This document shows positions 11,629 to 43,771 of a DNA stretch of 64,000 nucleotides, one piece after another; the stretch's first letter is position 1; each line of letters begins with the position of its first letter. The notes beneath the pieces are model-generated. The model was given only the letters and a program-made list of their open reading frames with translations. It was not told the DNA's origin and made no database searches. This DNA is from Patescibacteria group bacterium (GTDB taxonomy: Bacteria; Patescibacteriota; Minisyncoccia; UBA6257; UBA9933). Position numbers and translations under genes: made by a program. The stretch lies in NCBI GenBank assembly GCA_038065035.1, contig JBBTRV010000007.1, positions 2,382 to 66,381 on the forward strand. The letters are read 5' to 3'.

Positions 11629-11644
11629 TTTTTATATCACCTCC

Positions 11645-20446: not shown

Positions 20447-20457
20447 AGTTTATATTT

Positions 20458-20560
20458 ACAAATACAATCGCAAAAATTTTTCTTCAACTCGCTCACCTCC
20501 GCCAGTTGGCGGACTGCGCTTCCGTTTAGGTTTCAGAAAAAAATTTGCGATTGTATTTGT
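20458..20560 (-). promoter_or_regulatory. long hairpin in the pnp 5' leader: 24-bp AT-rich arms enclosing the GC palindrome CCGCCAGTTGGCGG
   Basis: seen in sequence: 20458..20481 is the reverse complement of 20537..20560; sits 11 nt upstream of the pnp ATG with no SD in between. Confidence 0.55.
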
Positions 20561-20571
20561 ATTGTTTAAAT

Positions 20572-25372: not shown

Positions 25373-25565
25373 TGAATCATTGGAAGTATATTCTTGATTA
25401 TCTTTCTGGGGACCTCCAAGAATTGTTTGATCTTCGTCGTTAAAAGGCGCATTTTTATTGATTAAAGCGATATTGGCTATTAAAATAAGGGGAATTAAAA
25501 ATAGCGGCCACCAAATGGCGCTTTCTTGTTTGAACCAATGCTTTAATTTGTTTAATATAGTACTA

Positions 25566-27374
25566 ATGAATCCATTATATCAAGATTTAAATAAAGAGCA
25601 AATGGAAGCTGTGGATTACTCAGGAGGCCCGATTTTGATTGTTGCCGGAGCGGGTTCGGGGAAAACAAGAGTTTTAACCAGCCGTTTGATGGCTATTTTA
25701 AGAGCCGGTGCGGCTCCGGATAGCGTTATTGCTATTACTTTTACAAATAAGGCGGCGGAAGAAATGAGGAATAGAATAACTAATGACTTACGACTAATGA
25801 CTAATAACACTAATTTTGTCACAAGTTATAAGTCATTTGTCATTAGTCCGTTTATCGGCACTTTCCATTCTTTTGGCGCGCGGATTTTGAAAAAAGAAGC
25901 GCGTTTAGTTGGTAGGGGCGCCAATTTTTCGATTTTTGACGAAGACGATGTGATGAAAGTTATAAAAAATATTGTTAAAAATTTTAATTTGCCGGCTGGC
26001 GGAAAAAATCTTTCACCAGTCGCTTTGCGCCGGGAATTTTCGCGCGTTAAAAATGAATTGGCGGATATTGAAGAAGAAAATAAAACAACAAAATATCTTT
26101 ACAAAGAATACGAGTCGGCATTAGTTGAAAATAACGCTTTTGATTTTGACGATTTGATAGAAAAACCAGCGAGATTATTTTTGGAAAACAAAAATATTCT
26201 TGAAAAGTATCAAAATCAATTTCAGCATATTTTAGTCGATGAATTTCAGGACACGAATATAGCGCAGTATTTTCTGATAAAACTTTTAGCGGAGAAGCAT
26301 AAAAATTTAAGTGTTGTCGGGGATGATCAACAATCTATATATAAATTCAGGGGGTCGGATTACCGGAATTTTTTGAATTTTGAAAATGATTGGCCGAAAA
26401 TAAAAGTCGTTTTGTTGGAGCAAAATTATCGTTCCAGCGGTAATATCATCGCCACCGCTTCGGCTTTGATAAAAAATAATAAATTCCAAAAACGAAAGAA
26501 TCTTTGGACGGAAAATTTGAAAGGAGAATTGGTGAAAATAATCGAATGCAAAAATGAAGACGAAGAAGGATTGTGGATAGCAGATAAAATCTCCAATAAT
26601 CCGCAACAATTAGTTGCTGTATTATATAGAACCAACGCTCAGTCGCGGGCGATTGAAAGCGCTTTGATTGATAAAGGAATCGCTTATCGGATTTTCGGCG
26701 GCATTAAATTTTACGAAAGAAAAGAAATAAAAGATATTTTGGCCGGCCTTCGCTGGGCCGCTAATCCTAATGACTCGGTGAGTTTGGAAAGATTAAAAAA
26801 AAATCTTTTGAAAGGACAATTTAAGGCTGTTTACGAGGGATTGTCAGGCTTGGCTGACAGGCTAAAGCCAACCGAGATGATTGATTTTTTCCTTGAAGCG
26901 ACTAATTATTTCACTCAATTAAAAAAAGAGTATCTGAATTATGAAGAGCGTTTTGAAAATATTCAGGAGCTGGTTCGTTTTGCTTCAAGTTTTGATAATT
27001 TAAGCGATTTTTTGGAAAGAGTGTCGCTTTTTCAATCAACGGATATTATAAATGATAAGTCAAAAGTCATAAGTCAAAAGTCAAATGTTTTTTTGATGAC
27101 CGTTCATTTGGCGAAGGGTTTGGAATTTGACGCAGTTTTTATCGCCGGTTGTAATGAAGGGTTGATGCCGCACCAGATGTCGTATTATAGAGACGAAGAA
27201 ATAGAAGAAGAAAGGCGTTTGATGTATGTGGCGATGACTAGAGCAAAAAAAGAATTATTTATCAGTTTTTATAATATGCCGTCAAGGTTTTTGTACGAAT
27301 TGCCGCCGGAACTCATTGAATTTACCGGCGAGCGGTCATTGGATGACGAAGAAAGATATATTAGCATTGATTAA
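25566..27374 (+). CDS. pcrA: ATP-dependent DNA helicase PcrA/UvrD
   Basis: motif I GAGSGKTRVL, Ia AITFTNKAAEEM, II VDEFQDTN, VI VAMTRAKKEL; start at MNPLYQDL. Confidence 0.9.
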   Translation: MNPLYQDLNKEQMEAVDYSGGPILIVAGAGSGKTRVLTSRLMAILRAGAAPDSVIAITFTNKAAEEMRNRITNDLRLMTNNTNFVTSYKSFVISPFIGTFHSFGARILKKEARLVGRGANFSIFDEDDVMKVIKNIVKNFNLPAGGKNLSPVALRREFSRVKNELADIEEENKTTKYLYKEYESALVENNAFDFDDLIEKPARLFLENKNILEKYQNQFQHILVDEFQDTNIAQYFLIKLLAEKHKNLSVVGDDQQSIYKFRGSDYRNFLNFENDWPKIKVVLLEQNYRSSGNIIATASALIKNNKFQKRKNLWTENLKGELVKIIECKNEDEEGLWIADKISNNPQQLVAVLYRTNAQSRAIESALIDKGIAYRIFGGIKFYERKEIKDILAGLRWAANPNDSVSLERLKKNLLKGQFKAVYEGLSGLADRLKPTEMIDFFLEATNYFTQLKKEYLNYEERFENIQELVRFASSFDNLSDFLERVSLFQSTDIINDKSKVISQKSNVFLMTVHLAKGLEFDAVFIAGCNEGLMPHQMSYYRDEEIEEERRLMYVAMTRAKKELFISFYNMPSRFLYELPPELIEFTGERSLDDEERYISID

Positions 27375-27400
27375 CAATTTAACAATTAAGTAATTAATTC

Positions 27401-28234
27401 ATGACTAAATTAGGACAGCATTTTTTAATAAATAAAAAAAAGATTCTAAAAATTGTTGAAACGCTGGAGTTAAAAGATGGCGACACGGTTATTGAAATCG
27501 GGCCAGGACACGGAGAGCTCACAACGGCGATTATCGAAAGATTAGAAGATTTAAAGATTGAAAGATTTAAAATTGTCATTGTTGAAAAAGATAGAGAATT
27601 AGTTCGGGCCTTGGAGCAGAAATTTAAAACTAAAAATAAATTAGAAATTTTAGAAGGCGATATTTTGAGAATTTTACCAGAAATAATTTTTCAATTTAGC
27701 AATCTTTCAATTAGCAATTATAAACTTGTTGGCAATATTCCTTATTATATAACAGGATACTTATTGAGAATCTTGGGAGAATTAAAGAATAAGTCTTTGT
27801 TAATTGTTTTACTAATTCAAAAAGAAGTGGCGGAAAGAGTTTGCGCGAAACCGTCAAAAATGAATTTGCTTGCCGCTAGCGTTCAATTTTGGGCGGAGCC
27901 GAAAATAATCGGCTATGTTTCCAAAAAAGATTTCCGGCCCCAGCCGAAAGTTGACAGCGCGATTATAAAGCTAAAAGTTAAAAGCGAGAAGTTAAAAATT
28001 AAGCCGGAAGATTATTATAAATTTATCAAGATTCTTTTTAAACAGCCGAGGAAAACTATTTTAAATAATTTAATGGCGGGAGTAAGGAATAAGAAATTGA
28101 AAATAAAGGATAAAAAAGGAATTATGGAAAAATTATCTAAAATCGGCATTAATCCGCAAGCCAGGCCGCAGGATTTGAGCTTGGAGGAAATTGTTAAGTT
28201 AACAGCGTTGTTTGAAGGCGAAAAAGTGATATAA
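27401..28234 (+). CDS. rsmA: 16S rRNA (adenine1518/1519-N6)-dimethyltransferase
   Basis: LGQHFLINKKKILKIV ... VIEIGPGHGELT SAM-binding motif. Confidence 0.9.
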   Translation: MTKLGQHFLINKKKILKIVETLELKDGDTVIEIGPGHGELTTAIIERLEDLKIERFKIVIVEKDRELVRALEQKFKTKNKLEILEGDILRILPEIIFQFSNLSISNYKLVGNIPYYITGYLLRILGELKNKSLLIVLLIQKEVAERVCAKPSKMNLLAASVQFWAEPKIIGYVSKKDFRPQPKVDSAIIKLKVKSEKLKIKPEDYYKFIKILFKQPRKTILNNLMAGVRNKKLKIKDKKGIMEKLSKIGINPQARPQDLSLEEIVKLTALFEGEKVI

Positions 28235-29951: not shown

Positions 29952-30803
29952 ATGAAATTTTTTAAAGTAGTGGCAACGATTCTAATTTTCAGCGGCGGAA
30001 TAGCCGGTACTTATTTAATTATTAAAAATTCTGATTCGGAAATCAGCAATATAGACTTAAGTTCATTGAAACAGTCAATAAAAGACTCAGTAAGCGATAA
30101 TCCCCTTGTGTGGCTAGACAATATTTCTGCAACAAGTTCTTTAAATGAAGCAATTTTCAATGAATCTCAAGAAAAATATAATGCAAATAGTCTTCAATCT
30201 TTTAATTTAACCAAAATAGCGTCTCAATCAATATTTAGCAAAGCGCAGGAAGCGAGTCAAAACGGGAATGATTCTGTTGCGTTGCTTACTCAGAATGATT
30301 TAGAAATTCAAGTGGCGATTCAGGAAACTCTTGATTCATTTACCGACCCATTATCAATTTTTTATGATCCTGTTTCTGAAAATAATTTAGCGATTATTGA
30401 TGATAATTCTTTGCAAGCCCAAATAAAATATTACGAAGATTATCAAGAGATTATAAAAAGAGCGTTTGACAATTTTAAAAAAGACAGCGGTGAAATTTTA
30501 CGCGATGTTTTTGAAAAAAAAGATTTTTCCTCCGCACAAAAGGCGATGGAAATTTATAAAACCTTAGCTGATAATTTTATTAAACTCATTGTTCCGTCAA
30601 GTTTGGTGGAATTTCATATAAAAAATATCCAACATTATCAAAATGCTTATTTAATTTACCGAGCAATTTCTCAATATTCTCAAGACCCTCTTAAAACTTA
30701 TTTAGCAGTTAAGGCTATTCCTCAGCTCTATGGTGAAACCGAAGAAATTCAAAATTTATTTAAAGAAATATTAGAAGAGCGGACAAAAGAATTTAATTTA
30801 TGA
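29952..30803 (+). CDS. hypothetical membrane-anchored secreted protein (first gene of the T4SS-like cluster)
   Basis: N-terminal TM anchor; no known domain. Confidence 0.4.
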   Translation: MKFFKVVATILIFSGGIAGTYLIIKNSDSEISNIDLSSLKQSIKDSVSDNPLVWLDNISATSSLNEAIFNESQEKYNANSLQSFNLTKIASQSIFSKAQEASQNGNDSVALLTQNDLEIQVAIQETLDSFTDPLSIFYDPVSENNLAIIDDNSLQAQIKYYEDYQEIIKRAFDNFKKDSGEILRDVFEKKDFSSAQKAMEIYKTLADNFIKLIVPSSLVEFHIKNIQHYQNAYLIYRAISQYSQDPLKTYLAVKAIPQLYGETEEIQNLFKEILEERTKEFNL

Positions 30804-32398
30804 AAAATTCAATAAACTACAAAAGAAAATTATTAATATTTTTTTTAGTTACTGTCTTTTTTTATGGTTTATCAGGATTTTTATATTATCCTGCTCAGGC
30901 GGGGATTGCTTCAGGTAGCATAATAAACGATCCTATACATACCGTTGAAACTCTTTTGCAATCGATTTGGGATAAATATATAGCAAACTGGGAATTTTGG
31001 AGGGATCAGGTAATAGATAGTATTGTGGCGCGGATTATTAATGATTTTAACGAAGAAACGGTTAAATGGGTTCAGGGAGTTGGTGATAAAAAAGGCCCTA
31101 AATACGTGACTGATTGGGAAGATTTTGTAAAACAAGCGGGAAAAACCGCTGAAGATCAGGTTATTCAAGATGTTGGTTTGGCGCGACTTTGCTCTCCGTT
31201 TAGTGTACCGGTTAATATTTCTCTTCTTCCGGTTCAAAGGTTTCAAGATAAAATTTCCTGCACTTTTAACGATATTGGCCAGAATCTTGAGGATTTTTAT
31301 GAAGATTTTCGAAACGGCGGTTGGTTGGGATATTCGGAGAGTTGGAAACCGGAAAATAACTACTTTGGACAGATGATAATGATTCATGATCAATTAGTAA
31401 TGGAAACCGCTAAAAAACAAGAAGCGGCTAGTAATGAAGCTTTGGCAAGTAGAGGATTTTTATCAGTGAAAAAATGTGTTGAACAGGGACCAATAGATCC
31501 AATTAAAAGGAATGAAATATTTGATAGTTGTTTTGCCGGTTACAATTATGATCCCGATAAAGCTAGTGATTGCGCGGACAAGGCCGATAAAGAAGCGGCT
31601 ATTTGTGAAAAAGAAGAAATCATCACTCCGGGAGATGTCGTGGCTGAAGCTATGGGCGATGTGGTTCGGTCTGATAGAGAGCGCGTTTATAATAGCCGTT
31701 CTGAAAAAGCTTTATATAATTTAATTGCAAATATTACTAATGCCGCTATTAATCGGGTAGTGAAAGATGGAATTGGTTATGTAAAAGAACAGATGAGCGA
31801 TGATGAGAAAAAACAAGCTGATCAGGATTATAAAGATATGATTGATAGGGATAATATTAGAAAGAAAAAAGAAATGATAACTGAAATTAACAAATTAGTT
31901 ACAGAATGGCAATATATTCTTGGAAGAAAAGATCGGTCGCCTACTAATTCTTCTCTTTCTTATTCGCAACAAACTCTTGCCGCTTTACAGGAAATTCAAA
32001 GACGCAATAAATTGGCCAGCCAGTCGCAACCTCCTTCTTTATTGCCTTCTTGTAATCCGCCGGTTTCAGATAGCGATATAGCTCAAATTCAGGCAGAGGT
32101 TAACCGGTTAGATGCCGAAGTCAGCGATTTGGAAACAAAAATTAAAGAAGCCAATGATTTGATTACGGAAATCAATAATGTTGATTTAAATAACATCCGG
32201 GCAAATTCTTTAGTGCAGGATAAATATTTCCAATTTACGCAGAAATACAGCAATGATGAAACAATAAGCGGAATGGTTACCGGTTCAAACAGGAAGGCGG
32301 CTGATAGCGAGCGCAATGATAAGCGAACAGAATTTAACGGCGCGCAAACAAGATTAAATACTTGTATTCAAATCCAATCGATGAATTCAGCCCCATAA
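30800..32398 (+). CDS. hypothetical secreted Cys-containing protein with C-terminal coiled coil
   Basis: signal peptide ending AQA; start overlaps the previous stop (ATGA). Confidence 0.4.
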   Translation: MKNSINYKRKLLIFFLVTVFFYGLSGFLYYPAQAGIASGSIINDPIHTVETLLQSIWDKYIANWEFWRDQVIDSIVARIINDFNEETVKWVQGVGDKKGPKYVTDWEDFVKQAGKTAEDQVIQDVGLARLCSPFSVPVNISLLPVQRFQDKISCTFNDIGQNLEDFYEDFRNGGWLGYSESWKPENNYFGQMIMIHDQLVMETAKKQEAASNEALASRGFLSVKKCVEQGPIDPIKRNEIFDSCFAGYNYDPDKASDCADKADKEAAICEKEEIITPGDVVAEAMGDVVRSDRERVYNSRSEKALYNLIANITNAAINRVVKDGIGYVKEQMSDDEKKQADQDYKDMIDRDNIRKKKEMITEINKLVTEWQYILGRKDRSPTNSSLSYSQQTLAALQEIQRRNKLASQSQPPSLLPSCNPPVSDSDIAQIQAEVNRLDAEVSDLETKIKEANDLITEINNVDLNNIRANSLVQDKYFQFTQKYSNDETISGMVTGSNRKAADSERNDKRTEFNGAQTRLNTCIQIQSMNSAP

Positions 32399-32404
32399 AA
32401 CATT

Positions 32405-33871
32405 ATGAAATCTTTTGGAACTAAAAAAATATTTTTAATAATTCTGCTGATAATAGCAATATTGGGCTTTGGTGGAGTTAAAACAACCCATGCTTTTTTT
32501 GATGTTTCATTAGCTGATCTTGTGTCTAGTGTTGTTACGTTTCCTGTTCAGGTTATAGCTTATATTTTCGGCTATATTGCTAAAATTTTATTTACTCTTG
32601 GTGGTTTGCTTATAGAATTAGGCTTGAACGTTAATGAGCATTTATTAGATGATGCTTCGCCGGTAAAATATGGCTGGAATATTGTTTTGCAATTTACGAA
32701 TCTTGGCTTTGTTCTGGCGATTATTGTCATTGCTTTCGCCACGATTTTAAGAATGGAAAGTTATGGGATGAAAAAAATTCTTTGGAAACTTGTTGTGGCC
32801 GCCTTACTGGTGAATTTCAGCTTAGTAATTGCCGGAGGATTTCTTAATATTTCTCAAATTTTAACAGATTATTTTTTGTCTAAAGCTACATTAGAAGGTC
32901 AGGGATTTTCTTCTTTTTCGGAAAATTTTGCCGCTATGTTCAAAATTCAAGCTTTTTTTAAAGTCGCAAGCGTAACAGAAGGCTTTGATGATAGTGTATT
33001 ATCAGGAGCTGCAGCGATTGGAAATACATTTGGCGCGGGAGTTTTAACGAATATAGCTTCACTTGCCTTATTGACTTCTTTTACTTTGATCGGCGCGCTT
33101 GTTTTATTAGCGGTGGCTATAATGCTTTTGATTCGTTACGTGTATATGGCTATTTTGTTGATTGTATTGCCGGCAGTATGGTTAGCCTGGATTTTTCCAA
33201 ATACTGATAAACATTGGAAAGAATGGTGGGATAAATTTATTAGATGGACATTTTTTCCGCCAATAATGCTTTTTTTCTTATATTTGGATGTTTATATAAT
33301 GGAAACCCAAAAGGAATATGTAAAAGGCATTGTTGCGGGCGTTAATCCTGCGGCAAAGAGCAGTCTTGGCCTTACTTTTGGCTTTGATGCGATTGGAAAT
33401 CTAATTATTATTTTTGGTTTAGTTATAGGAGGACTTTTAGTGGCTAATAAATTAAGCATTATTGGAGCAAAAGAATTTTATGGTGCGGCGCAGGGAGCGA
33501 ATAAAAGCCTTGCTCATTGGACAGGGAGACTTCCATTAAGGGTTGGATCTAGAGGGCTAAAGAAAATTGATGAAAAATGGGGAGAGAAAATAAAAACGAA
33601 AGGAGAAGAATGGTCTCAAAAAAGTAAGTATGATCCTAGAAGATGGTTTGCTGGCGGAATTAAAGAAGCTAGTAAAGGCATAAAAAGGGGAGCTGTTTAT
33701 AAACCACCAAAAGAATACGCTACTTTTTGGGGTAGTACTTGGGGTGGTATGAAAAAGGGATCGGGGTTATTCAAGAAAAAGAAACAGCAATTTAAGGTGA
33801 TGACTGATAAAGGCGAAACAACTCTTGAGGGAGAAGCGGTTGAAGAAAATAAAGAAGAAAAGAAAGCATAA
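32405..33871 (+). CDS. polytopic membrane protein, VirB6/TrbL/PrgH-like candidate
   Basis: signal peptide, then at least 6 TM helices and a Lys-rich C-terminal tail; position in cluster. Confidence 0.45.
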   Translation: MKSFGTKKIFLIILLIIAILGFGGVKTTHAFFDVSLADLVSSVVTFPVQVIAYIFGYIAKILFTLGGLLIELGLNVNEHLLDDASPVKYGWNIVLQFTNLGFVLAIIVIAFATILRMESYGMKKILWKLVVAALLVNFSLVIAGGFLNISQILTDYFLSKATLEGQGFSSFSENFAAMFKIQAFFKVASVTEGFDDSVLSGAAAIGNTFGAGVLTNIASLALLTSFTLIGALVLLAVAIMLLIRYVYMAILLIVLPAVWLAWIFPNTDKHWKEWWDKFIRWTFFPPIMLFFLYLDVYIMETQKEYVKGIVAGVNPAAKSSLGLTFGFDAIGNLIIIFGLVIGGLLVANKLSIIGAKEFYGAAQGANKSLAHWTGRLPLRVGSRGLKKIDEKWGEKIKTKGEEWSQKSKYDPRRWFAGGIKEASKGIKRGAVYKPPKEYATFWGSTWGGMKKGSGLFKKKKQQFKVMTDKGETTLEGEAVEENKEEKKA

Positions 33872-33886
33872 AAATCAATAAATAAA

Positions 33887-35458
33887 ATGGATTATTCATT
33901 AATTACTGAACAACAAGCGCAAAAAAAATATAATTCTTTGCCTGATAAAATTAGGAATGTTTTAGATTCAGAAAATAGCGTTATGACGGTGGGCCAGATA
34001 TGTCGGAAGCATCATTTAGATGATGAAAGAATATTGATAGTTAATCAGTTAGTAGCGCTGATTTTATTAGGTTTTGTTTCGCCAAATGATTTTAGTCAGG
34101 AGATTATGGATAATACTCATTTGAATTATCAGCATTCTGATGATATTGCAAAAGAGATTTATGAGAAAATTTTCGCGCCGATTAGAAGCGAGATTGATAA
34201 AATTTATTCGCCAGTTCCACCTATTGCATCTTTGGTAAAAAAAGAAATGCCGGCCGCGGAGATCAAGGAAAAAGAGATTTTGAAAATAACCGAAGATAAG
34301 GAAGAACACCTCATTGATTTGCGGACTTTTGAGAAGAATATTAATCAACAACTAATAACTGACAACCAACAACAAATAATTTCAAAAGTTGAGAAACCGC
34401 CTGAAATCAAAAAAGAACTACCACAAGTTCCTTTACCAAGTAAAGAGAATACTGAAGCCACTCTGCTTACTAAATCTTTAGTAGAGGCAGGTCCAATGAT
34501 TCTTCATAAAGAAATTGAGACTAAGCCGACTTTGGGCAAGCAAAGGTCTTTAGGCGGATTATTCGGATTTTTGAGAGCGCAGAGATTAGGAGAAGCGAAA
34601 ATTGATAAGCAAAAGCCAGTAACAGCAGAAGTGGAAATTCCTATTTTAGAGTTGCCGAAGCCCTTCGACATTGCTCGGGGCAAGCCGTCTGTGGTGAGCA
34701 AAGTCGAACTACCGAAAGTGGTTCATTATAGCGATTTGAAAACGTCGGTTATTAAACCTATAACCGATAACTTACAACCGACAACAATTAAAATATCGGA
34801 AGTGTCGTTACCACTAGCGCCAAAACCTTTTGACATGACTCAGCGGGAGAAACTAGAAAGTAAAAGCAAGATTTTTGAATCAGAAATAGAAAAAGCCAAA
34901 GCAGCCGGATTGATTATTAATAATCAATCTCGAATAGCAGTCCCGCAAAGCGGGACGCTACGGGGTACACAGCCGCCGATAAGCGACCAGCAATTCAATA
35001 TTGAAGAAATACCGGTTGAGATTGAAGAAATTCCAAGAAAAAGTTTTTTCAGCAAAATTCTTCAGTTTTTCACTGGTTTGTTTGTGACGAAGAAAAAAAT
35101 TATTAAAGAAGTGCCAGAGCAAAAAGAAAACTTGATTTCTAAACTTGCGCAAGAAAGAAGTAGGGGGGAAATTTCTATGCCTTTGCCGCCGACGCCGCCA
35201 GCAGCCAAGGCCGAATCACCAAAGAGAGGATTTGAATTTCCGCTGGAATTTAAGCTGCCGGAGCTCAAGAAAAATAATCAATTACCGGCAGTCAATAATC
35301 AACAGCCAATAACTGATAATTTACAATTAAAAGAGCTTGAACCGCCGGAGGTTCACGAGGCGAGAGAAAAACAGCAGCCAATAATGGCAAAACCAGAAGA
35401 ATCTAAAGCGAGCGATGAAGAAATTATTGATTTAAGGACATTTCAAAAAATAAAATAA
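33887..35458 (+). CDS. low-complexity Pro/Lys/Glu-rich protein with internal repeats
   Basis: repeated LPKPFD and IIDLRTF(E/Q)K motifs; no TM. Confidence 0.4.
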   Translation: MDYSLITEQQAQKKYNSLPDKIRNVLDSENSVMTVGQICRKHHLDDERILIVNQLVALILLGFVSPNDFSQEIMDNTHLNYQHSDDIAKEIYEKIFAPIRSEIDKIYSPVPPIASLVKKEMPAAEIKEKEILKITEDKEEHLIDLRTFEKNINQQLITDNQQQIISKVEKPPEIKKELPQVPLPSKENTEATLLTKSLVEAGPMILHKEIETKPTLGKQRSLGGLFGFLRAQRLGEAKIDKQKPVTAEVEIPILELPKPFDIARGKPSVVSKVELPKVVHYSDLKTSVIKPITDNLQPTTIKISEVSLPLAPKPFDMTQREKLESKSKIFESEIEKAKAAGLIINNQSRIAVPQSGTLRGTQPPISDQQFNIEEIPVEIEEIPRKSFFSKILQFFTGLFVTKKKIIKEVPEQKENLISKLAQERSRGEISMPLPPTPPAAKAESPKRGFEFPLEFKLPELKKNNQLPAVNNQQPITDNLQLKELEPPEVHEAREKQQPIMAKPEESKASDEEIIDLRTFQKIK

Positions 35459-35462
35459 TGCG

Positions 35463-36089
35463 ATGCAATTTCAAGTACCTCAATTTATCGATATTGAAAA
35501 TAAAATTGTCGGGCCTTTGAGTTTGAGGCAGTTTTTGTATGTGGCCGCCGCCGGCGGATTGAGCTTTTTGCTTTTTTTCCTGGATATTTTTAAGTTGTGG
35601 AGCTGGGTGATGCTCAGCGCTGTTTTGGTCGGCCTAGGCGCGGCATTGGCATTCGGCAAATATAACGGCCAGCCATTTCCTAAAATAGCGCTTCGGGCTT
35701 TTAGTTTTTTTGTAAGGCCCCGGCTTTATCTATGGCGAAGGGAAATTGAGGAAATAACCATTGATGTGCCGGAAATAAAGATTCCTGAAATTTTGCAGAA
35801 GCCCTTGGAAAAAGAAGCGAAAAAATCAACTGTTAAATTTCCAGCAATGAAACATCTTGAAATTCCGGCGGAAAATGTCGTAATCAAAAGAAAATCCTTG
35901 AAAGAATATTTTCCGGATATGCCGTCGGTGAAAAATTTGATGCTTAATTTAATGACTACTAAATCGCCGATTCCCAAAAGGGAAAAGCCTCACTTGCTCA
36001 ACTGGGGTCAAGTGCCGAAAGAAAAATTTGAGATTTTAAAGAGAATAACCGGAGAGAAAGAAATGGCAAGGCGAGTAGATTATAAATAG
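35463..36089 (+). CDS. PrgI-family (VirB3-like) membrane protein
   Basis: N-terminal FQVPQFIDIENKIVGPLSLRQFLYVAAAGGLSFLLFF resembles the PrgI family start; two TM helices. Confidence 0.6.
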   Translation: MQFQVPQFIDIENKIVGPLSLRQFLYVAAAGGLSFLLFFLDIFKLWSWVMLSAVLVGLGAALAFGKYNGQPFPKIALRAFSFFVRPRLYLWRREIEEITIDVPEIKIPEILQKPLEKEAKKSTVKFPAMKHLEIPAENVVIKRKSLKEYFPDMPSVKNLMLNLMTTKSPIPKREKPHLLNWGQVPKEKFEILKRITGEKEMARRVDYK

Positions 36090-36104
36090 TATATAATAAT
36101 ATAT

Positions 36105-36746
36105 ATGACACAAAATGTTTCCACGCAACAATTCGTTGATATTGAATCCGTTAAAAACGGCGTTTTGGTTTTAAAAAACGGCAGTTTGAGGAAAATTTTA
36201 ATGGTTTCCGGAATTAATTTTGACCTTAAGTCGGAAGAAGAACAGGGCATTATTATTAGCGCGTTTCAGAATTTTTTGAACACTTTGGAATTTTCCATCC
36301 AATTTCTTGTGCATTCAAGAAAAATGAATATTTCCGCTTATCTTGAAAAGCTTCAGCAAAGGGAAACTCAGGAAGAAAATGGGCTGTTGAAAAATCAAAT
36401 TTCCGAATATGTTGAGTTCGTCAGAACGTTCGTGGAAAATAACGCCGTGATGGCGAAAACTTTTTTCGCGGTGGTGCCTTACGATTCTGTTCAAATTTCC
36501 AAAATCGGCGGTAATATTTTGTCAAATGTGAAATTTTGGCAGAAGAACAAAAAAGTTGAAATAAAAGACGAAGATTTAGAGCAAAAAATTATGAGGATTA
36601 ACCAAAGGACAGAACAGGTAAGCAACGGTTTAAATCAAATCGGCCTTCGGGCGGTGGCTTTAAACGATGAAGAACTGACGGAATTATTTTATAATTTATA
36701 TAATCCCAGCGATATGGAGAAAAAGGAAATAAAACATGGAAATTAA
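36105..36746 (+). CDS. VirB4/PrgJ-family ATPase, N-terminal domain encoded as a separate ORF
   Basis: VDIESVKNGVLVLKNGSLRKILMVSGINFDLKSEEEQ matches the N-terminal region of Gram-positive VirB4 homologs; overlaps the next ORF by 11 nt in another frame. Confidence 0.65.
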   Translation: MTQNVSTQQFVDIESVKNGVLVLKNGSLRKILMVSGINFDLKSEEEQGIIISAFQNFLNTLEFSIQFLVHSRKMNISAYLEKLQQRETQEENGLLKNQISEYVEFVRTFVENNAVMAKTFFAVVPYDSVQISKIGGNILSNVKFWQKNKKVEIKDEDLEQKIMRINQRTEQVSNGLNQIGLRAVALNDEELTELFYNLYNPSDMEKKEIKHGN

Positions 36747-38475
36747 AATCCCCCAATCTTATAATGCTTCGGAGAAAGACGCTAAAGACATTATTGCGCC
36801 GGCGGCTTTGGAAAATAATCCCGGCTATCTGAAACTTGGCGACAAATTCGTTAAAACAATTTTCATTTTTACTTATCCGCGCTATTTATCAAGCAGCTGG
36901 CTTAATCAGTCGATTAATCTGCCGGAAATGATGGATATCGCGATTTATTTCCATCCCATAGACACGGTTTTAGCTCTTAAAAATTTGAAGAAAAAAACCG
37001 CCAATATTGAAGCTCAACTGATGGACAGGGAAGAAAAAGGATTAATAAGGGATCCCCAGCTTGAAACCGCTTATCAGGATATAGAAATGCTGCGCGACAC
37101 CTTACAGCAGGCGCAAGAGAAAATATTTAATGCCGGCGTGTATATAACTTTCCAGGCAGACTCTCTTGAAGGATTAACTAAATTGGAAGAAAAAATAACT
37201 ACTTTATTTGAAAGCCAGTTGATTTACGTTAAGCCTGCGCTTTTCCAACAGATAGAAGGATTTTCTTCAACTTTGCCTTTGGCTTCGGATAAACTGGGTG
37301 TTTGGACTCCGCTTAACACCGCGCCCGCTTCCTCGCTTTTTCCTTTTTCTTCAATGGACTTGACTTATGACGATGGCATTCTTTACGGCATCAATCGTCA
37401 TAATAACGGCTTGATTATTTTTGACCGGTTTTCTTTGGAGAATGCGAATTTAGTTGTATTTGCCAAAGCCGGCGCCGGCAAAAGTTATTCGGTTAAGTTG
37501 GAAATCATCCGTTCAATGATGATGGGAATAGATGTTTTGATTATTGACCCGGAAAATGAATACCAGAAATTGGCAAACACGGTTGGCGGCAGTTTCTTTA
37601 AAATTTCTTTGACTTCGGAAAACGCAGTTAATCCTTTTGACATTCCAATTATTCCGAAAAATGAAGACGCCGGCGATATTTTTAAATCCCATATTTTAAA
37701 TCTTACCGGACTTTTGAAATTGATGCTTGGTAAAATCACTCCTGAAGAAGACGCGCTTTTGGATAGAGCGATTACGGAAACTTACGCTTCGCGGGGCATC
37801 ACCGCTGATATACGGGATTTTACCAATATTGCTCCGCCTTTGCTTGAAGATTTAGAGCAGGTTCTTGAAAATATGGAAGGCGGCCGGGGATTGGCCGAGC
37901 GGCTGTATAAATTTACCAAAGGCACTTACGCCGGATTTACCAATCGGCCGACCAATATCGATATAAAAAATCGCTTGATTGTTTTTTCAGTTCGTGATTT
38001 GGAAGAAGAGCTGAGGCCGATAGCAATTTATATCGTGCTTAATTTCGTCTGGAATTTGATTCGGGCCGAACTTAAAAAAAGAATTTTAGTGATTGACGAA
38101 GCATGGTGGATGATGAAATATCCGGACAGCGCCAGCTTTTTGTTTAGCTTGGCGAAGCGCTGCCGGAAATATTATCTTGGGCTGACGACCATTACTCAAA
38201 ACGTGGCGGATTTTCTGGAATCGCCTTATGGCCGGCCGATTATTACTAATTCGTCGCTTCAGCTTTTATTGAAACAAGCGCCGGCGGAAATAGAAATTAT
38301 CGCTAAAACTTTCAATCTTTCCGAAGCGGAAAAGCAATTACTATTGGAAGCCAATATCGGTGAAGGATTGTTTTTCGCCGGCTTAAAACACGCGGCAATT
38401 CAGATTATTCCGTCTTATTTTGAAAATCAGATTATTACCACTAATCCGGAGGAGATATTGGAGATGAAAGAGTAA
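36736..38475 (+). CDS. VirB4/TraC/PrgJ-family conjugation-type ATPase (central and C-terminal part)
   Basis: IIAPAALENNPGYLKLGDKFVKTIFIFTYPRYL entry motif, Walker A GAGKS, Walker B ILVIDEAWWMM. Confidence 0.85.
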   Translation: MEIKIPQSYNASEKDAKDIIAPAALENNPGYLKLGDKFVKTIFIFTYPRYLSSSWLNQSINLPEMMDIAIYFHPIDTVLALKNLKKKTANIEAQLMDREEKGLIRDPQLETAYQDIEMLRDTLQQAQEKIFNAGVYITFQADSLEGLTKLEEKITTLFESQLIYVKPALFQQIEGFSSTLPLASDKLGVWTPLNTAPASSLFPFSSMDLTYDDGILYGINRHNNGLIIFDRFSLENANLVVFAKAGAGKSYSVKLEIIRSMMMGIDVLIIDPENEYQKLANTVGGSFFKISLTSENAVNPFDIPIIPKNEDAGDIFKSHILNLTGLLKLMLGKITPEEDALLDRAITETYASRGITADIRDFTNIAPPLLEDLEQVLENMEGGRGLAERLYKFTKGTYAGFTNRPTNIDIKNRLIVFSVRDLEEELRPIAIYIVLNFVWNLIRAELKKRILVIDEAWWMMKYPDSASFLFSLAKRCRKYYLGLTTITQNVADFLESPYGRPIITNSSLQLLLKQAPAEIEIIAKTFNLSEAEKQLLLEANIGEGLFFAGLKHAAIQIIPSYFENQIITTNPEEILEMKE

Positions 38476-38483
38476 AAATATTT

Positions 38484-38813
38484 ATGGAGAAAAAAATTTC
38501 ATTGCCGGAGATAATTTTAATCAATTTATATATTATTCCGTTAGATGCAATTGGTTTATTGCTAGTTTTTTTCGGATTGGACGATTTTTGGATTATAGAT
38601 ATTTTAACCTTTCCAATAACCCAATTTTATTTTAGAATGATAGGAGCGAAAGCTAACGCCGATTTAATCACTAGTCTGGTGGAATTAATTCCTTATGTTG
38701 GCGCTTTGCCGATTAAAAGCATTGGTGTTAATTTGACTATTTATTTTACTAATCACCCGCCAAAAATAATGGAAAATTTGCCGATTTCAAAAATGGCTGG
38801 AGTAAAAAAATAA
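38484..38813 (+). CDS. small membrane protein (109 aa)
   Basis: two hydrophobic helices; position in cluster. Confidence 0.4.
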   Translation: MEKKISLPEIILINLYIIPLDAIGLLLVFFGLDDFWIIDILTFPITQFYFRMIGAKANADLITSLVELIPYVGALPIKSIGVNLTIYFTNHPPKIMENLPISKMAGVKK

Positions 38814-38823
38814 AATAACAAAA

Positions 38824-39546
38824 ATGACGAATTTCAAAATTCAAATAGGATTTATAAGTCTAATAAGTTTAATAGGATTTGTAGGACAAATAGGATATGC
38901 CCAAATTTCGCCTCAATTTATGGTTAGTTGGCAGGCGGATTCAACAGCGCCGGCATGGTATTCGGGAAAAATTTTTCCGACTAAAGATTCGCCGGTTGAA
39001 ATAAGTTTTGAATTGATTGACAGCAGTTCGGCTTCGCTCACTGCAGGCGGCAAAATTGTCGACCTTTCAAAAACCACTATCCGCTGGTATATTAACGATA
39101 AATTAGTTAAAAATGAAAGCGACGGTTTGGGAATCAAGTATTTAAAATTTATCACAGCTGATTATCCGGGACAAGACACGGAAATCAGAATCTCCATTCC
39201 GAATTATAAAAATTTCGGGCCATTGGATAAAATCATCGCAATTCCCATTGTTAAGCCGCAAACGATTATTATCGCTCCTTATTCCGATAGAAAAATAACC
39301 GCTGGCAAAAGCGTGTTTGAAGCGATTCCGTTTTTTTTCAGCGCGAAAGATTTAAGCAATATTACTTATAAGTGGTTTGTTGATAATCGGGTGGTTTCTG
39401 ACATTGGCGATAATCAGAGGATTCTTGATTTTAATATCCCGCAAGAAGTGCCCAAAGGAACAGTTGTTAATATTAAAGCGACAATAAAGAATTTATTAAA
39501 AGATTTGGAATTTTCCAGTGGGAACTTAAATGTGGAAATAAAATAA
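38824..39546 (+). CDS. secreted protein with two tandem ~90-aa beta-rich domains
   Basis: signal peptide ending AQI; internal duplication (TIRWYINDKLV / TYKWFVDNRVV). Confidence 0.4.
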   Translation: MTNFKIQIGFISLISLIGFVGQIGYAQISPQFMVSWQADSTAPAWYSGKIFPTKDSPVEISFELIDSSSASLTAGGKIVDLSKTTIRWYINDKLVKNESDGLGIKYLKFITADYPGQDTEIRISIPNYKNFGPLDKIIAIPIVKPQTIIIAPYSDRKITAGKSVFEAIPFFFSAKDLSNITYKWFVDNRVVSDIGDNQRILDFNIPQEVPKGTVVNIKATIKNLLKDLEFSSGNLNVEIK

Positions 39547-39548
39547 TT

Positions 39549-40238
39549 ATGTTCGCAAAAATTTTTATTTTTTTGATATTTATTTTTGTTTTAATGTCAG
39601 GCGGTTTTATAAGTCATGGTGCGCAATTTGATTATCCGTGGTCGGGAATAACGGAAGTCGGCGGCCAAAGCGGATTAGTAGCTGAATTTTACCAAATCGC
39701 TTTGGCTTTGGTTAGCGTAACCGCTTTTGCAGTGATGGTTTTCGCCGGAGTGCTTTATATTGTTAGCGCCAGTAATCCATCAAAACAAAAAGAAGCCATG
39801 GATTGGATTTGGGCCGCTGTTTTTGGCATTGTGCTTTTATTGGGAGCGTATTTGTTGTTTTACACAATAAATCCGGAATTAGTGAAATTAACGCTGCCGG
39901 GGGTAGATAAAATCGATCTTCCTCTACCTTCAATCTTAAGTCCGTCTTCAAGCCCTGTTTTAGCTCAAGCACCGTTAAATCCGGCAGCAACTAATATGAT
40001 TTCTTTGCAACCTCCATCAGCTGCTGAAGTAGCTGCTTGCCAAAGAGATGCGTCAACAATTCAAGACGCCAGCGGGAAGAAAGCTTATTGTGATGGAAAT
40101 AAACAAAATAAATATGAATGGATTAGCGGGAAATGTGATAGCATAGCTACGACAAGAGATGCTCAAAATTATTGCAAACAAAAAGGAAAAACCGACGCAG
40201 TTTTCGCTAAAGATTGGGGAGTTTGTTGTAAACCATAA
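39549..40238 (+). CDS. T4SS-type pilin (TrbC/VirB2-like, Gram-positive/CPR pilin family) with Cys-rich C-terminal extension
   Basis: signal peptide, then FYQIALALVSVTAFAVMVFAGVLYIVSASNPSKQKEAMDWIWAAVFGIVLLLGAYLL matching the two-helix SAGNPSK-type pilin core; ~90-aa tail with 7 Cys. Confidence 0.65.
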   Translation: MFAKIFIFLIFIFVLMSGGFISHGAQFDYPWSGITEVGGQSGLVAEFYQIALALVSVTAFAVMVFAGVLYIVSASNPSKQKEAMDWIWAAVFGIVLLLGAYLLFYTINPELVKLTLPGVDKIDLPLPSILSPSSSPVLAQAPLNPAATNMISLQPPSAAEVAACQRDASTIQDASGKKAYCDGNKQNKYEWISGKCDSIATTRDAQNYCKQKGKTDAVFAKDWGVCCKP

Positions 40239-40257
40239 CTCAAACCATTTTACTTAA

Positions 40258-41403
40258 ATGAAAAAAGCAATTTCAATATTAATTATAATTTTATTTATTG
40301 TTGCCATTGGCGTTGGCGTTTATTTCGGCTGGCAGAAATCAAGGGAAATTTTAACGCCGCCGTCAGATATTAACCCGCAACCCATAATTGATAATCAACA
40401 ACAGCCGCCTTTAACGGCTCCGAAGCCGAAATTAAAAATTATCAGCGTTCAATCAGCTTTTGATTATTGGACGGCTGTTTCCGGAGATGTTTTTTATATT
40501 AATCAAGAAGGCAAAATTTTTAAAGCGAAGTCCGGTAGTGAGCTTGGCTCTACTACTCGGGTGAATGAAAAAGAAGATGAGCTGATTAGCAATAGAGAAA
40601 TTAATAATCTTACCAGTATAAAATCGAATAAAGACGGAACAATGGTAATGGTTAAATACGGCGATTTGAGTTTTCCAAAGCTGGAAATTTTTGACGTTAA
40701 TAAAAAAGTTTGGCAGTTGATCGGAGATAATATAAGCGTTGCTGATTTTTCTCCGGACAGCTTAAAAATAATTTACGTTGAAAAAAAGGGCAATGGAACA
40801 AGCGATTTAATTACCAAAGATTTAAATTCCGCTAAACCAAAGACTATTAAAATTATGTCTTTATCTTATTTGCCATATGACTTGGCGTGGATTGGCGCGA
40901 ATAATATTTTGCTGATTCCGGCGCCTTCCGCCGGCTACGCCGGAGAAATTTGGCAAATTGACATAAAAAATAAAACAATCAAATCTTTCGCAAGCGATTT
41001 CGGCTTATCAATAAAATTGTTTTCCGGGAGCGATAATGGCTTGCTGTTTGATAGCACTAAGAATCAAATGAGTTTAGTTGACGCTAATGGCGCGATAAAA
41101 GCAAATATAGGAATTTCAACTCTGCCGGAAAAATGTTTTATGAATGCGTCTAAAATTTATTGCGCTATTATGCAAAATTATTCAAATACTCTGCCGAAGC
41201 CAATTCTTCCCGATGATTATTTGAAAAAAGCGTTTTATTCGCGGGATAAAATTTACGCTATTGACATAGCCGATAATTCTTCCGAGCTTGTTTTAAGCGA
41301 TGAATTGCCGCCGGCTATTGACGCTGTTAATTTATCTTTAAATGGAAATAATTTGTTTTTCATTAATCGTTATGATAATAGGGTTTACAATTTAGAATTA
41401 TAG
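40258..41403 (+). CDS. membrane-anchored beta-propeller-like (TolB-like) protein
   Basis: N-terminal TM anchor; repetitive beta-strand content; last gene of the cluster. Confidence 0.4.
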   Translation: MKKAISILIIILFIVAIGVGVYFGWQKSREILTPPSDINPQPIIDNQQQPPLTAPKPKLKIISVQSAFDYWTAVSGDVFYINQEGKIFKAKSGSELGSTTRVNEKEDELISNREINNLTSIKSNKDGTMVMVKYGDLSFPKLEIFDVNKKVWQLIGDNISVADFSPDSLKIIYVEKKGNGTSDLITKDLNSAKPKTIKIMSLSYLPYDLAWIGANNILLIPAPSAGYAGEIWQIDIKNKTIKSFASDFGLSIKLFSGSDNGLLFDSTKNQMSLVDANGAIKANIGISTLPEKCFMNASKIYCAIMQNYSNTLPKPILPDDYLKKAFYSRDKIYAIDIADNSSELVLSDELPPAIDAVNLSLNGNNLFFINRYDNRVYNLEL

Positions 41404-41404: not shown

Positions 41405-42742
41405 ATGTCCTTCTTTAAGCGAATTTTTTTATATTTAAAAATGCCGGAAATGCGGCTTTTTTGGTATTTTGTTTTATTTTTCGCGATTTTTTGGGCAGTT
41501 AATTTTCTCGTTAATTTTGAAATTATTTATTTATCAATGCCGCTGATTTTTATTAATAGCGGACTACTGATGTTTTTTTTAATTTTTGCTTTTTCTCATA
41601 GCATAAAATTAGCCGGGAAAAATCTTGAAATAAAAACCGACAAAGCTGCTTTCGTGAATATTCTTTCCGTTTTGCCGAGTGGCATCGTCGTCTACGATAG
41701 AAATCTAAAAATTTTGCTTTTTAACAAGACGGCGGAGAGTATTTTTGGCATCAGCGTTGATGATGTTGTGGGACAGCGTTTTAGTCCTGACAGAGTTAGC
41801 CAATCGCGCTACCAGCTTTTAAGTCAGGTTCTTTTTCCGTCGTTAGCTCCGACGGTTGTTAAATATTCAGACGCTGGAGGGTACCCTCAAACAATGGATT
41901 TATCTTTTGAAAATCCGAATATCGAATTAAGAATTATCACCGATAAATTTATTGACGCGAACGGTGATGCGGTTGGATTCATTAAAATAATCAGCGACAG
42001 GACGCGCGAAAAAGAAATGCTGCGTTCAAAAAGCGAATTTATTTCAGTTGCCGCCCACCAATTAAGAACGCCGTTGTCAGGGCTTAACTGGGCGATGGAG
42101 AGTTTGGCAAAAGAAGCGATAAGTGAAGCGCAAAAAGAAATTATTGATACTGCGCTTAAGGCCACGGCTTATCTTTTGAAGATAGTCAACGACTTGCTTG
42201 ACGTTTCAAAAATAGAAGAAGGCCGTTTCGGCTATAATTTTGAGGAAGTGAATATGGCTGATTTTATAGAAACAGTTATAGGAGAAACAAAAGAATTAAG
42301 CGAAGAATCGGGCATTAAAATTAATTTTCAGAAACCGGAATCGGATATTAAGGCGACTATTGACCCACAGAAATTAGGCATGGTTTTGTTTAATCTTTTA
42401 GATAATGCTGTTAGATATAATGTTAAAAACGGGGAGGTCTTCGTTGATTTAGATAAATTAAAAGATAAACCATATATCAGGATTAGCGTTAAAGATACTG
42501 GCATTGGGATCGCTGAACAGGAAAAAGAGAAATTATTTACTAAATTTTTCAGGGCGGATAATGCCATTAAAGCCGCTCCAAATGGTAGTGGATTAGGGCT
42601 TTACATAGTGAAAAATATCATTAAAAGGCACGGTGGAGAAGCTTGGTTTGAATCGGAAATAAATCGCGGCTCAACTTTTTATTTTACTTTACCGATTGAT
42701 TCAAAATTGATACCAGTAAAAGAAATAGCATATGACGAATAA
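41405..42742 (+). CDS. sensor histidine kinase (TM helices, PAS, HisKA, HATPase_c)
   Basis: H-box SVAAHQLRTPLSGL; N, G1, G2 boxes (LLDNAVRYN, DTGIGI, GLGLYIV). Confidence 0.85.
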   Translation: MSFFKRIFLYLKMPEMRLFWYFVLFFAIFWAVNFLVNFEIIYLSMPLIFINSGLLMFFLIFAFSHSIKLAGKNLEIKTDKAAFVNILSVLPSGIVVYDRNLKILLFNKTAESIFGISVDDVVGQRFSPDRVSQSRYQLLSQVLFPSLAPTVVKYSDAGGYPQTMDLSFENPNIELRIITDKFIDANGDAVGFIKIISDRTREKEMLRSKSEFISVAAHQLRTPLSGLNWAMESLAKEAISEAQKEIIDTALKATAYLLKIVNDLLDVSKIEEGRFGYNFEEVNMADFIETVIGETKELSEESGIKINFQKPESDIKATIDPQKLGMVLFNLLDNAVRYNVKNGEVFVDLDKLKDKPYIRISVKDTGIGIAEQEKEKLFTKFFRADNAIKAAPNGSGLGLYIVKNIIKRHGGEAWFESEINRGSTFYFTLPIDSKLIPVKEIAYDE

Positions 42743-42829: not shown

Positions 42830-43771
42830 ATGCCAGAGCTTCCTGAAGTTCAAACAATAGTAGAAGATTTAAAGAAAAAGGTTGTTGGCAGAATAATTAC
42901 CGGCGTTTGGTTTGACGCTCCGAAGATAATCACCCTTCGACTGGCTCAGGGTGATGGTGAGCGAAGTCGAACCATCAAAAAACCAAAAGCCACAGAATTC
43001 CAAAAACAAATTAAAGGATTAAAAATTACAGATATTCAGAGGCGCGGGAAAAATATACTTATTTATCTTGTTAAAAGCTATAAACTAAAAGCTAAAAGCT
43101 GTTATTTATTGCTTATTCATCAGAAGATGACCGGGCATCTGTTAGTTGGCAAATGGCAAATGGTAAATGGTAAAGTGGAAAGTTTGATTAAAGGGTTGTT
43201 GCGGGAAAAAGTTAATAACTATATCCATTTAATTTTTTATCTTGATAATGGCTGGCAATTAGCGCTTTCTGATTTAAGGAAATTCGCCAAAGTTTTGTTT
43301 GGTTTAAAAGAAGAAATTGAAAATTTGCCAGATTTAAAGATGCTTGGACCTGAGCCGCTCGATGAAAGTTTTAAGATTGATAAGTTTATAAGTTTAATAA
43401 GTTTGGAGAAAAGAAAAATCAAGCAGGTTTTAATGGACCAAGAGGTGATTTCCGGTATTGGCAATATTTACAGCGATGAGATTTTATGGCAAGCGAAAAT
43501 CCATCCTTTTACTCCAGCCAATAGATTGAAAACAGGGCAGTTAAAAACCATATATTCGTCTATGCGCCAAATATTAAAAAAAGCCATAAAATTGCGCGGC
43601 ACTTCTATTAGCGATTTTCGGGACACTTCCGGCAAATCCGGCGCTTATGCCGATATTAGAAAAGTATATGCTAAAGAAGGGGAAAAGTGTCAACGTTGTC
43701 AAACCTTAATTAAAAGAATTAAAATAGGAGGAAGAAGCGCACATTTTTGCCCTAAATGCCAAATAATATGA
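42830..43771 (+). CDS. fpg: formamidopyrimidine-DNA glycosylase (Fpg/MutM/Nei family)
   Basis: MPELPEVQT N-terminus, H2TH region, C-terminal C4 zinc finger CQRC ... CPKC. Confidence 0.9.
   Translation: MPELPEVQTIVEDLKKKVVGRIITGVWFDAPKIITLRLAQGDGERSRTIKKPKATEFQKQIKGLKITDIQRRGKNILIYLVKSYKLKAKSCYLLLIHQKMTGHLLVGKWQMVNGKVESLIKGLLREKVNNYIHLIFYLDNGWQLALSDLRKFAKVLFGLKEEIENLPDLKMLGPEPLDESFKIDKFISLISLEKRKIKQVLMDQEVISGIGNIYSDEILWQAKIHPFTPANRLKTGQLKTIYSSMRQILKKAIKLRGTSISDFRDTSGKSGAYADIRKVYAKEGEKCQRCQTLIKRIKIGGRSAHFCPKCQII

Follow-up and report, generated by a model that had tools for sequence, protein, structure and literature searches.

Which role can a type IV secretion system (T4SS) play in a bacterium when the genes that process DNA for conjugation are missing from its surroundings? 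This question is raised by a block of genes at positions 29952-41403 of a window of 64,000 nucleotides, i.e., the whole stretch of DNA that was analyzed, from contig JBBTRV010000007.1 of the Patescibacteria assembly GCA_038065035.1. A first reading of the raw sequence (here called the original prediction) had described this block as a compact, Gram-positive-type T4SS or pilus-like cluster without coupling protein or relaxase, serving attachment, DNA uptake or effector delivery rather than conjugation. We consider it highly probable that the locus is a chromosomal, vertically inherited and non-conjugative T4SS of the Patescibacteria clade, derived from MPF-FATA systems and belonging to a Wolfebacteria-like Parcubacteria genome, which likely mediates host contact or the exchange of macromolecules. 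A listing of open reading frames (ORFs) returned 11 co-oriented ORFs of at least 100 aa (O1 to O11) on the + strand of the block. From O1 through to the histidine kinase gene that follows O11, the spacing between genes ranges from -11 to +19 nt, an operon-like packing in which O1 and O2 overlap by 4 nt and O6 and O7 by 11 nt. The co-oriented and partly overlapping genes that had been predicted are thus present, but not the twelve that had been announced: the earlier list itself sums to 11, and 12 is reached only if the kinase is included. Scans for promoters and terminators gave no more than the shuffled expectation. As judged from sequence, the apparatus appears to consist of a platform (O3, O5, O6 and O7), a pilin (O10) and six further conserved envelope or cytoplasmic proteins.

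Conservation of the block and the search for conjugation genes

A scan of a genome collection yielded 80 loci in different species of Parcubacteria, among which the VirB4 identity ranges over 57-79%. These loci span Wolfe-, Jorgensen-, Harrison-, Taylor-, Nomura-, Kaiser-, Giovannoni-, Nealson- and Zambryskibacteria. Using iterated local hidden Markov model (HMM) searches, we observed the order UvrD-KsgA-O1 to O11 in essentially every sufficiently long locus, in ~80 Parcubacteria species. Since this gene order recurs, all 11 genes, including O1, O2, O4, O8, O9 and O11, can be regarded as conserved components of one block. Moreover, since the same order and the same housekeeping flanks are found in ~80 species, the block is taken to be vertically inherited and not an integrative and conjugative element (ICE). 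The original prediction had allowed for an ordinary ICE should a full conjugative set lie just outside the window, and this option was ruled out by the synteny across ~80 Parcubacteria species. Comparison of the window with the corresponding locus of Wolfebacteria GCA_000997755.1 (L002) gave identities of 83% for VirB4, 77% for PyrG, 69% for Fpg, 64% for UvrD and 63% for KsgA, and of 31-50% for the accessory proteins. VirB4 is thus more conserved than the flanking housekeeping genes (those compared lie at 25458-28234 and 42830-45402), which points to strong purifying selection.

The genes needed for conjugation were then sought in the 64-kb window, where every ORF of at least 100 aa was compared with Pfam, and among the called genes of the 10 kb upstream. 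No VirD4 or other type IV coupling protein (T4CP), no relaxase and no VirB11 were detected in these 74 kb. Their predicted absence from the window was thus confirmed, and no conjugative set was found in the 10 kb beyond the window start. Because the apparatus comes without relaxase or coupling protein, it would not be expected to conjugate DNA. The T2SSE, PilC and N-methylation-motif pilin families, which would mark a type IV or competence pilus, were likewise not detected in the cluster or the window.

Motor, membrane platform and pilin

The VirB4 ATPase is encoded by O7 (579 aa; 36736..38475, +), which comprises the P-loop domain and part of the N-terminal domain. O7 scored above the cutoff of the NCBIfam CD1110-family VirB4 (369 bits versus 325; model positions 180-729 of 752) and matched Pfam P-loop_TraG (5.5e-23). 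Its Walker A (AKAGAGKS, residues 243-250) and Walker B (ILVIDE, residues 450-455) motifs are both intact and are invariant in 15 orthologues. An identical protein is encoded on contig CAYIZW010000001.1 of the metagenome-assembled genome GCA_964368375.1. The preceding TrsD/TraD-like O6 (213 aa; 36105..36746, +) is equivalent to the N-terminal ~190 residues of a complete VirB4, as it aligns with positions 4-186 of the 792-position VirB4_CagE model. O6 carries a precomputed assignment to Pfam PF26593 (TraC-like) and matches NCBIfam TrsD NF041427 with 3e-10 and 40 bits, far below the family cutoff of 200. Placed end to end, O6 and O7 run colinear with a single full-length VirB4. Indeed, in loci L018 and L024 the two are a single protein of 770-790 aa, in which O6 aligns with residues 10-215 and O7 with residues 225-786. 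The best 120 homologues of O7, named Wolfebacteria or Patescibacteria and 74-95% identical to it, are all ~580 aa long; the two-ORF VirB4 is thus a conserved arrangement and not an error. By its sequence, the O6/O7 pair resembles the TrsD/TrsE pair of pGO1 and is not the product of a frameshift. The prediction of a VirB4 in two ORFs was correct as to the ORFs, but "split" in the sense of a disruption was not, given that this is a conserved TrsD plus VirB4 pair.

Two further membrane proteins would complete the platform. O5 (208 aa; 35463..36089, +) is a PrgI/VirB3-like membrane protein, as had been predicted, and matches Pfam PF12666 (PrgI) at 3.3e-10, with 40.8 bits versus a gathering score of 27; iterated HMM searches recovered its orthologues in 75 loci. 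O3 (488 aa; 32405..33871, +) was proposed to be a polytopic, VirB6-like protein. Hydropathy analysis supports the polytopic part, with at least 6 hydrophobic helices, and 6 of the 36 syntenic copies match PF04610 (TrbL/VirB6; best, 1.1e-6). The copy in the window, however, has no Pfam match of its own, and comparison of the family profile with PDB sequences gave nothing meaningful.

O10 (229 aa; 39549..40238, +) combines a VirB2-like pilin module with a C-terminal domain that contains 6 cysteines. With 2.2e-5 and 24.9 bits, its match to PF18895 (T4SS_pilin) falls just under the gathering score of 26.6, yet 49 of the 53 syntenic orthologues match PF18895 and 7 match TrbC/VirB2. Moreover, when the family profile was compared with the PDB, the sole matches, although weak, were the VirB2 chains of the Agrobacterium T-pilus. 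The predicted T4SS-type pilin is therefore well supported. The protein starts with a signal peptide, followed by a first transmembrane helix (~45-72), a short basic loop, a second transmembrane helix (~87-108), a linker rich in Pro and Ser and the genome-specific C-terminal domain (residues ~160-229). Since the two helices flank a short basic loop after signal peptide cleavage, the linker and the 6-Cys domain would face outward, and the C-terminal domain is predicted to be extracellular. This extension is hypervariable across species: in some it is a Cys-rich domain of one kind or another, in others a domain active on peptidoglycan (M23, M15 or YkuD); O10 orthologues lie, for example, at L024:12173-12985, L031:13662-14549 and L058:12761-13708. 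The 6-Cys domain of the window found no homologue among the other 83 loci. In addition, 29 of the 53 pilin orthologues match NF045849, the family of the Mycoplasma ICE "pilin-like conjugal transfer protein" Mbov_0395 (best, 8.5e-8). These matches hint at an origin of the pilin within monoderm MPF-FATA elements, in which pilin-like genes would already have existed, rather than at an acquisition from diderms.

Accessory proteins and genomic surroundings

As judged from hydropathy and sequence, the product of the first gene of the block, O1 (283 aa; 29952..30803, +), is anchored in the membrane by residues 6-24 and continues in a helical region outside the cytoplasm, which evolves fast. A word-indexed search returned only 2 homologues of O1, and iterated HMM searches found syntenic orthologues in 40 loci. 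No match to O1 was found in Pfam, NCBIfam or the PDB, and hhalign detected no relationship between O1 and O2. In O2 (532 aa; 30800..32398, +), a Sec signal peptide (AQA at residues 32-34) precedes a helical domain of ~300 aa, which is conserved and contains Cys, and the C-terminus forms a coiled coil. The original prediction had listed two secreted proteins; O2 with its signal peptide fits this description, but O1 has only an N-terminal membrane anchor. The O2 family is large (4,624 clusters at 50% identity, at E<=1e-10) and has no relative in Pfam, NCBIfam or the PDB; in a Pfam scan of its members, no family was common to more than one member. The conserved domain was modeled with AlphaFold2 from a 37-sequence alignment, which yielded a low-confidence, mostly helical model (pLDDT, 63; pTM, 0.39), and a Foldseek search of the PDB with this low-confidence model returned nothing at E<1.

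O4 (523 aa; 33887..35458, +) lacks a signal peptide and consists of a conserved N-terminal domain of ~105 aa and a long, Pro-rich disordered region. It had been called a Pro-rich repeat protein, which needs a minor correction: its Pro content is 8.6%, and its only repeats are short and degenerate. Orthologues of O4 are present in 61 loci. Pfam scans of the family members found no known family, and the profile of the N-terminal domain gave nothing meaningful against the PDB. The motif IDLRTF occurs twice, at residues 143-148 and 514-519 (34313-34330 and 35426-35443), the second copy lying near the C-terminus, whereas O4 ends in DPYREP in most other Parcubacteria. Similarly, PrgI proteins end in ARRVDYK/R (ARRVDYK in O5, 36060-36086) or, in other lineages, in LKDLAWSLDV. 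The terminal motifs of O4 and O5 thus differ between Wolfebacteria-like genomes and other Parcubacteria, and these short linear motifs may act as docking peptides. O8 (109 aa; 38484..38813, +) is a small multi-pass membrane protein, in agreement with the prediction, with the conserved motif ElIP.vgaLP. After HMM iteration its orthologues were found in 63 loci, and no Pfam or NCBIfam family matched it.

The tandem-domain secreted protein of the original prediction is O9 (240 aa; 38824..39546, +), in which a signal peptide is followed by two tandem Ig/PKD-like beta-sandwich repeats; most other Parcubacteria have three. Weak profile matches to Hoc and Ig domains were obtained for O9, and family members match BiPBP_C, Cadherin-like and PKD domains. 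A single-sequence AlphaFold2 model of O9 was unusable (pLDDT, 34). O11 (381 aa; 40258..41403, +) carries an N-terminal membrane anchor, a Pro-rich linker and a TolB-type beta-propeller. The propeller had also been predicted, and the match of the O11 family profile to TolB structures (7.9e-12) agrees with it. Orthologues occur in 59 loci, and a Cys pair at residues 293 and 302 is invariant. On the whole, the family guesses made from raw sequence held up in the HMM and profile tests, and so did the statement that several members (O1, O2, O4 and O8) have no recognizable family; the structure predictions that had been suggested for such proteins, carried out for O2 and O9, gave poor models. We also considered whether O9 or O1 could be the missing VirB8-like protein. 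This idea was set aside, because O9 is all-beta and Ig-like and O1 looks helical from its sequence, and neither suggests an NTF2 fold. No Pfam, NCBIfam or PDB profile match to a VirB8-like (NTF2-fold) or VirB1-like protein was obtained for O1, O2, O4, O8 or O9.

The block is embedded among housekeeping genes, which encode UvrABC, SHMT, RtcB/archease, MurC-like, RuvA, PNPase, ComM-like, UvrD, KsgA, UbiA, Fpg, PyrG, GyrB, NusG, L11, GatB, ClpB, DnaE and MiaA. The UvrD helicase and the KsgA/RsmA methyltransferase (25458..28234, +; Pfam) form the upstream context of the block and are not counted among its components. Only in this genome is a gene for a UbiA-family prenyltransferase (541 aa; 28252-29877) inserted between KsgA and O1; in the other loci in which both were detected, O1 directly follows KsgA. 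The sole hydrolase nearby is a small M23 peptidase (24866-25372, -), encoded 4.6 kb upstream beside UvrD and also found at this position in L002, L003, L008 and L073. It might take the place of the VirB1-type hydrolase that the cluster lacks. The predicted lack of such a hydrolase thus holds within the cluster, but the wider neighborhood offers this peptidase on the other strand.

Downstream, a membrane histidine kinase with PAS, HisKA and HATPase domains (41405..42742, +; Pfam) follows O11 at a distance of 1 nt, as had been predicted. It is a neighbor and not part of the core: its adjacency is limited to the Wolfebacteria-like loci L001-L003, L010 and L030. No response regulator lies next to it, and a stand-alone receiver-domain protein is encoded 19 kb downstream (62167-62556). 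The kinase is a possible regulator of the block. Neither tRNAs nor Rfam RNAs were found in the window. In the 10 kb beyond the window start we found UvrB and rnpA-yidC-jag, the latter at L084:692-2395 (7.6-9.3 kb upstream of position 1), and the cumulative GC skew rises monotonically across the 64 kb, without compositional anomaly. Since rnpA-yidC-jag is nearby and the cumulative skew rises, the T4SS block is probably located on the leading strand at a distance of ~40 kb from the origin of replication. Two other features of the window stand apart from the block. A group of RNA-handling genes upstream (9916-12377, -, and 18347-21087, -) encodes the RtcB ligase and archease, PNPase and an NYN-domain nuclease, and deserves attention in view of the recent suggestion that host RNA is a food source for such bacteria. 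A 728-aa protein (16123-18309) combines PG_binding_1 with Beta_propel (PF09826) and represents a second envelope propeller, positionally unrelated to the T4SS block.

Known systems, rival explanations and proposed role

Closest among known systems are the T4SSs of the Patescibacteria clade, such as that of Southlakia epibionticum ML1 (SEML1_0006-0019), a cluster with essential pilins and without recognizable coupling protein or relaxase, which is essential for epibiotic growth (Wang 2023, PMC10633639). Like them, the present locus is chromosomal, strongly conserved, linked to KsgA and probably proximal to the origin, and it contains VirB4, TrsD, PrgI/VirB3, a putative VirB6-like protein and a VirB2-like pilin, with neither relaxase nor T4CP in the cluster. 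It differs in that only one pilin gene, whose product has a large domain at its C-terminus, stands in place of an array of 6 pilins, and in that no peptidase or lysozyme gene directly follows virB4. A survey of 3,035 genomes found 2,425 VirB4 proteins in 2,407 assemblies, which form one Patescibacteria clade nested in MPF-FATA, and which are accompanied by TrsD (2,272 homologues), PrgI/VirB3, VirB6 and VirB2-like pilins (Quinonero-Coronel 2025, PMC12102498). In that survey, T4CP homologues are mostly distant from virB4, and the T4SS locus often lies near KsgA, RnpA, DnaA and the origin. Compared with the survey, in which the words TolB and propeller do not occur, the present block additionally contains O1, O2, O4, O8, the TolB-like propeller and the tandem Ig-like protein. 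The original prediction had called the composition and function of such clusters in the candidate phyla radiation poorly defined; this understates what is known, since their composition and distribution have already been surveyed in these 3,035 genomes. The system was described between 2023 and 2025, so that the interpretation is correct but not new (PMC10633639, PMC12102498 and review PMC12857230).

Among better-studied systems, the MPF-FATA transfer regions of pGO1 and pIP501 (TrsC-TrsD-TrsE and TraC-TraD-TraE) share with the present block the core order of a VirB3-like protein, a separate TrsD and VirB4, as well as a monoderm architecture without VirB7, VirB9 and VirB10. Unlike it, they are plasmid-borne, encode a relaxase, a T4CP, a VirB1-type hydrolase and VirB8-like proteins and have no VirB2-like pilin. 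The Clostridioides CTn2-type systems define the CD1110 family whose cutoff O7 exceeds, and the Mycoplasma ICE (Mbov_0395-0397) has a VirB4 with which O6 and O7 are colinear, although all matches to its models fall below the curated cutoffs. Both differ from the present locus in being mobile, in carrying genes for DNA processing and in having VirB4 in one piece. The Agrobacterium VirB/T-pilus system has a pilin of the same layout (signal peptide and two hydrophobic helices), and its VirB3, VirB4 and, putatively, VirB6 have equivalents here. However, the outer membrane core (VirB7, VirB9 and VirB10), VirB5, VirB8, VirB11 and VirD4 are missing from our block, which comes from a monoderm organism and has a long C-terminal domain on its pilin.

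How does the proposed non-conjugative role compare with other explanations? That the locus is an ICE or an ICE remnant, transferring DNA with the help of a relaxase and a VirD4 encoded elsewhere, appears very unlikely. Such an element would account for the best VirB4 matches, which are to conjugative families (CD1110/CTn2, Mycoplasma ICE VirB4 and TraC), for the XerC/D-like tyrosine recombinase at 21551-22456, and for the survey finding that VirD4-like genes lie far from virB4 in most Patescibacteria and that a few genomes have relaxases (PMC12102498). However, it does not fit with a gene order and a UvrD-KsgA flank that recur in ~80 species, nor with the unremarkable composition of the window and the lack of a relaxase or T4CP within 74 kb. 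Moreover, relaxases are rare in the survey (109 homologues in 103 of the 3,035 genomes, 15 of them near virB4), and the distant T4CP gene of S. epibionticum is dispensable, whereas its T4SS is essential (PMC12102498). Whereas an ICE would be variably present, inserted between att sites and linked to an integrase, the locus and its flanks are syntenic across ~80 species, and the recombinase lies 8 kb upstream of the block amid housekeeping genes. A decaying or inactive system, i.e., a pseudogenized relic with a frameshifted VirB4, can be dismissed almost entirely. This idea draws on the spread of VirB4 homology over two overlapping ORFs in different frames, but the two-ORF form with a C-terminal ORF of ~580 aa occurs in hundreds of genomes at 74-95% identity and in nearly all of the 80 loci, O6 matches the established TrsD family of pGO1-type systems, and VirB4, with its invariant catalytic motifs, is more conserved than the housekeeping genes around it. 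The frameshift or pseudogene hypothesis was rejected on the basis of this conserved layout, the TrsD match and the fusions in L018 and L024.

Helicobacter pylori ComB and the archaeal Ced system are DNA import machines that are likewise VirB4-based and function without relaxase or coupling protein. We judge it quite unlikely that the present block is a competence machine of this kind. O7 does match CedB (1.3e-11) and CedD (1.2e-4), but these matches are weak, far below the cutoffs and do not amount to membership at the sequence level. In favor of DNA uptake, the T4SS of the ABY1 class colocalizes with comF, recG and radA (PMC12102498), and these organisms cannot make nucleotides. Against it, competence of S. 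epibionticum requires type IV pili and ComEC, and deletion of comEC abolishes transformation and leaves viability unaffected, while the T4SS is essential (PMC12857230; PMC10633639). Genetics in Saccharibacteria thus separates competence from the T4SS, and neither ComEC nor any DprA-type gene accompanies our cluster. Of the roles listed in the original prediction, DNA uptake is for these reasons the least favored; a non-conjugative role as such (attachment, uptake or delivery) is supported and matches the view in the literature (PMC10633639, PMC12102498, PMC12857230). A module for adhesion or cell wall remodeling that has no pilus, in which the "pilin" would be an anchored carrier that presents hydrolase or binding domains of variable type, with no translocation through the complex, is improbable too. 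The hypervariable extension of O10, with M23, M15 or YkuD domains in some species, would suit such a module, and Gram-positive T4SSs are normally without pili (PMC12857230). Yet simple Sec-dependent surface display does not require a conserved VirB4 motor or VirB3 and VirB6, the pilin arrays of S. epibionticum are essential, and in a cultured member of the phylum tubular structures that reach the host, possibly T4SS pili, have been reported together with uptake of host RNA (bioRxiv 10.64898/2026.06.21.733656). A last idea, doubtful but with more to be said for it, is that a VirB4-driven tube, which presents the fast-evolving, species-specific pilin domain on its outside as a "warhead" and is assembled by a hitherto unrecognized extracellular scaffold of the propeller, the Ig-like protein and O2, breaches the envelope of a specific host and imports host macromolecules such as RNA. 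The warhead may be a peptidoglycan hydrolase in some species and a small Cys-rich binding domain here. If true, this would make the apparatus a feeding organelle and not a secretion system.

The reading that we prefer, a non-conjugative T4SS of the Patescibacteria clade acting in host contact, must also be held against several points. The pilus is proposed from a VirB2-like module only, and the one pilin of the cluster bears a C-terminal extension of more than 100 aa, which a canonical VirB2 filament might not accommodate. Neither a VirB8-like nor a VirB1-like component could be recognized within the cluster. For O1, O2, O4, O8, O9 and O11, the suggested roles come only from conserved synteny and predicted location. 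Finally, VirD4-like genes lie elsewhere in most Patescibacteria genomes (PMC12102498), and our search covered 74 kb.

With these points in mind, the most likely role of the apparatus would be that of a pilus or conduit for host interaction. A VirB4 hexamer would be docked on VirB3 and VirB6, with TrsD supplying the N-terminal part that VirB4 is missing. By drawing pilin out of the membrane and polymerizing it, this motor could form a pilus or tube, whose wall-spanning and distal part would be built or decorated by three proteins: the secreted O2, the tandem Ig-like protein and the anchored TolB-like propeller. O1 might also belong to this part, and the cytoplasmic O4 might serve as an adaptor; the places of O1 and O4 are suggested by synteny and predicted location. 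The outward, species-specific C-terminal domain of the pilin would contact the host envelope, and the apparatus would mediate delivery to, or uptake from, the host, as needed for the growth of an episymbiont with a reduced genome.

T4SSs of this kind are present in ~80% of Patescibacteria genomes and are essential for growth on the host in the one genetically tractable species. The present locus does not define a new category and is a clean and complete Wolfebacteria example. Its additions are modest: a conserved accessory set, the hypervariable C-terminal domain of the pilin and the large, unannotated O2 family. The comparison with ~80 loci turns these into a class-wide list of accessory genes (the TolB-like propeller, the tandem Ig-like protein, the O2 family, O1, O4, O8 and the pilin with its hypervariable outer domain) for structural and genetic work on how these bacteria tap their hosts.

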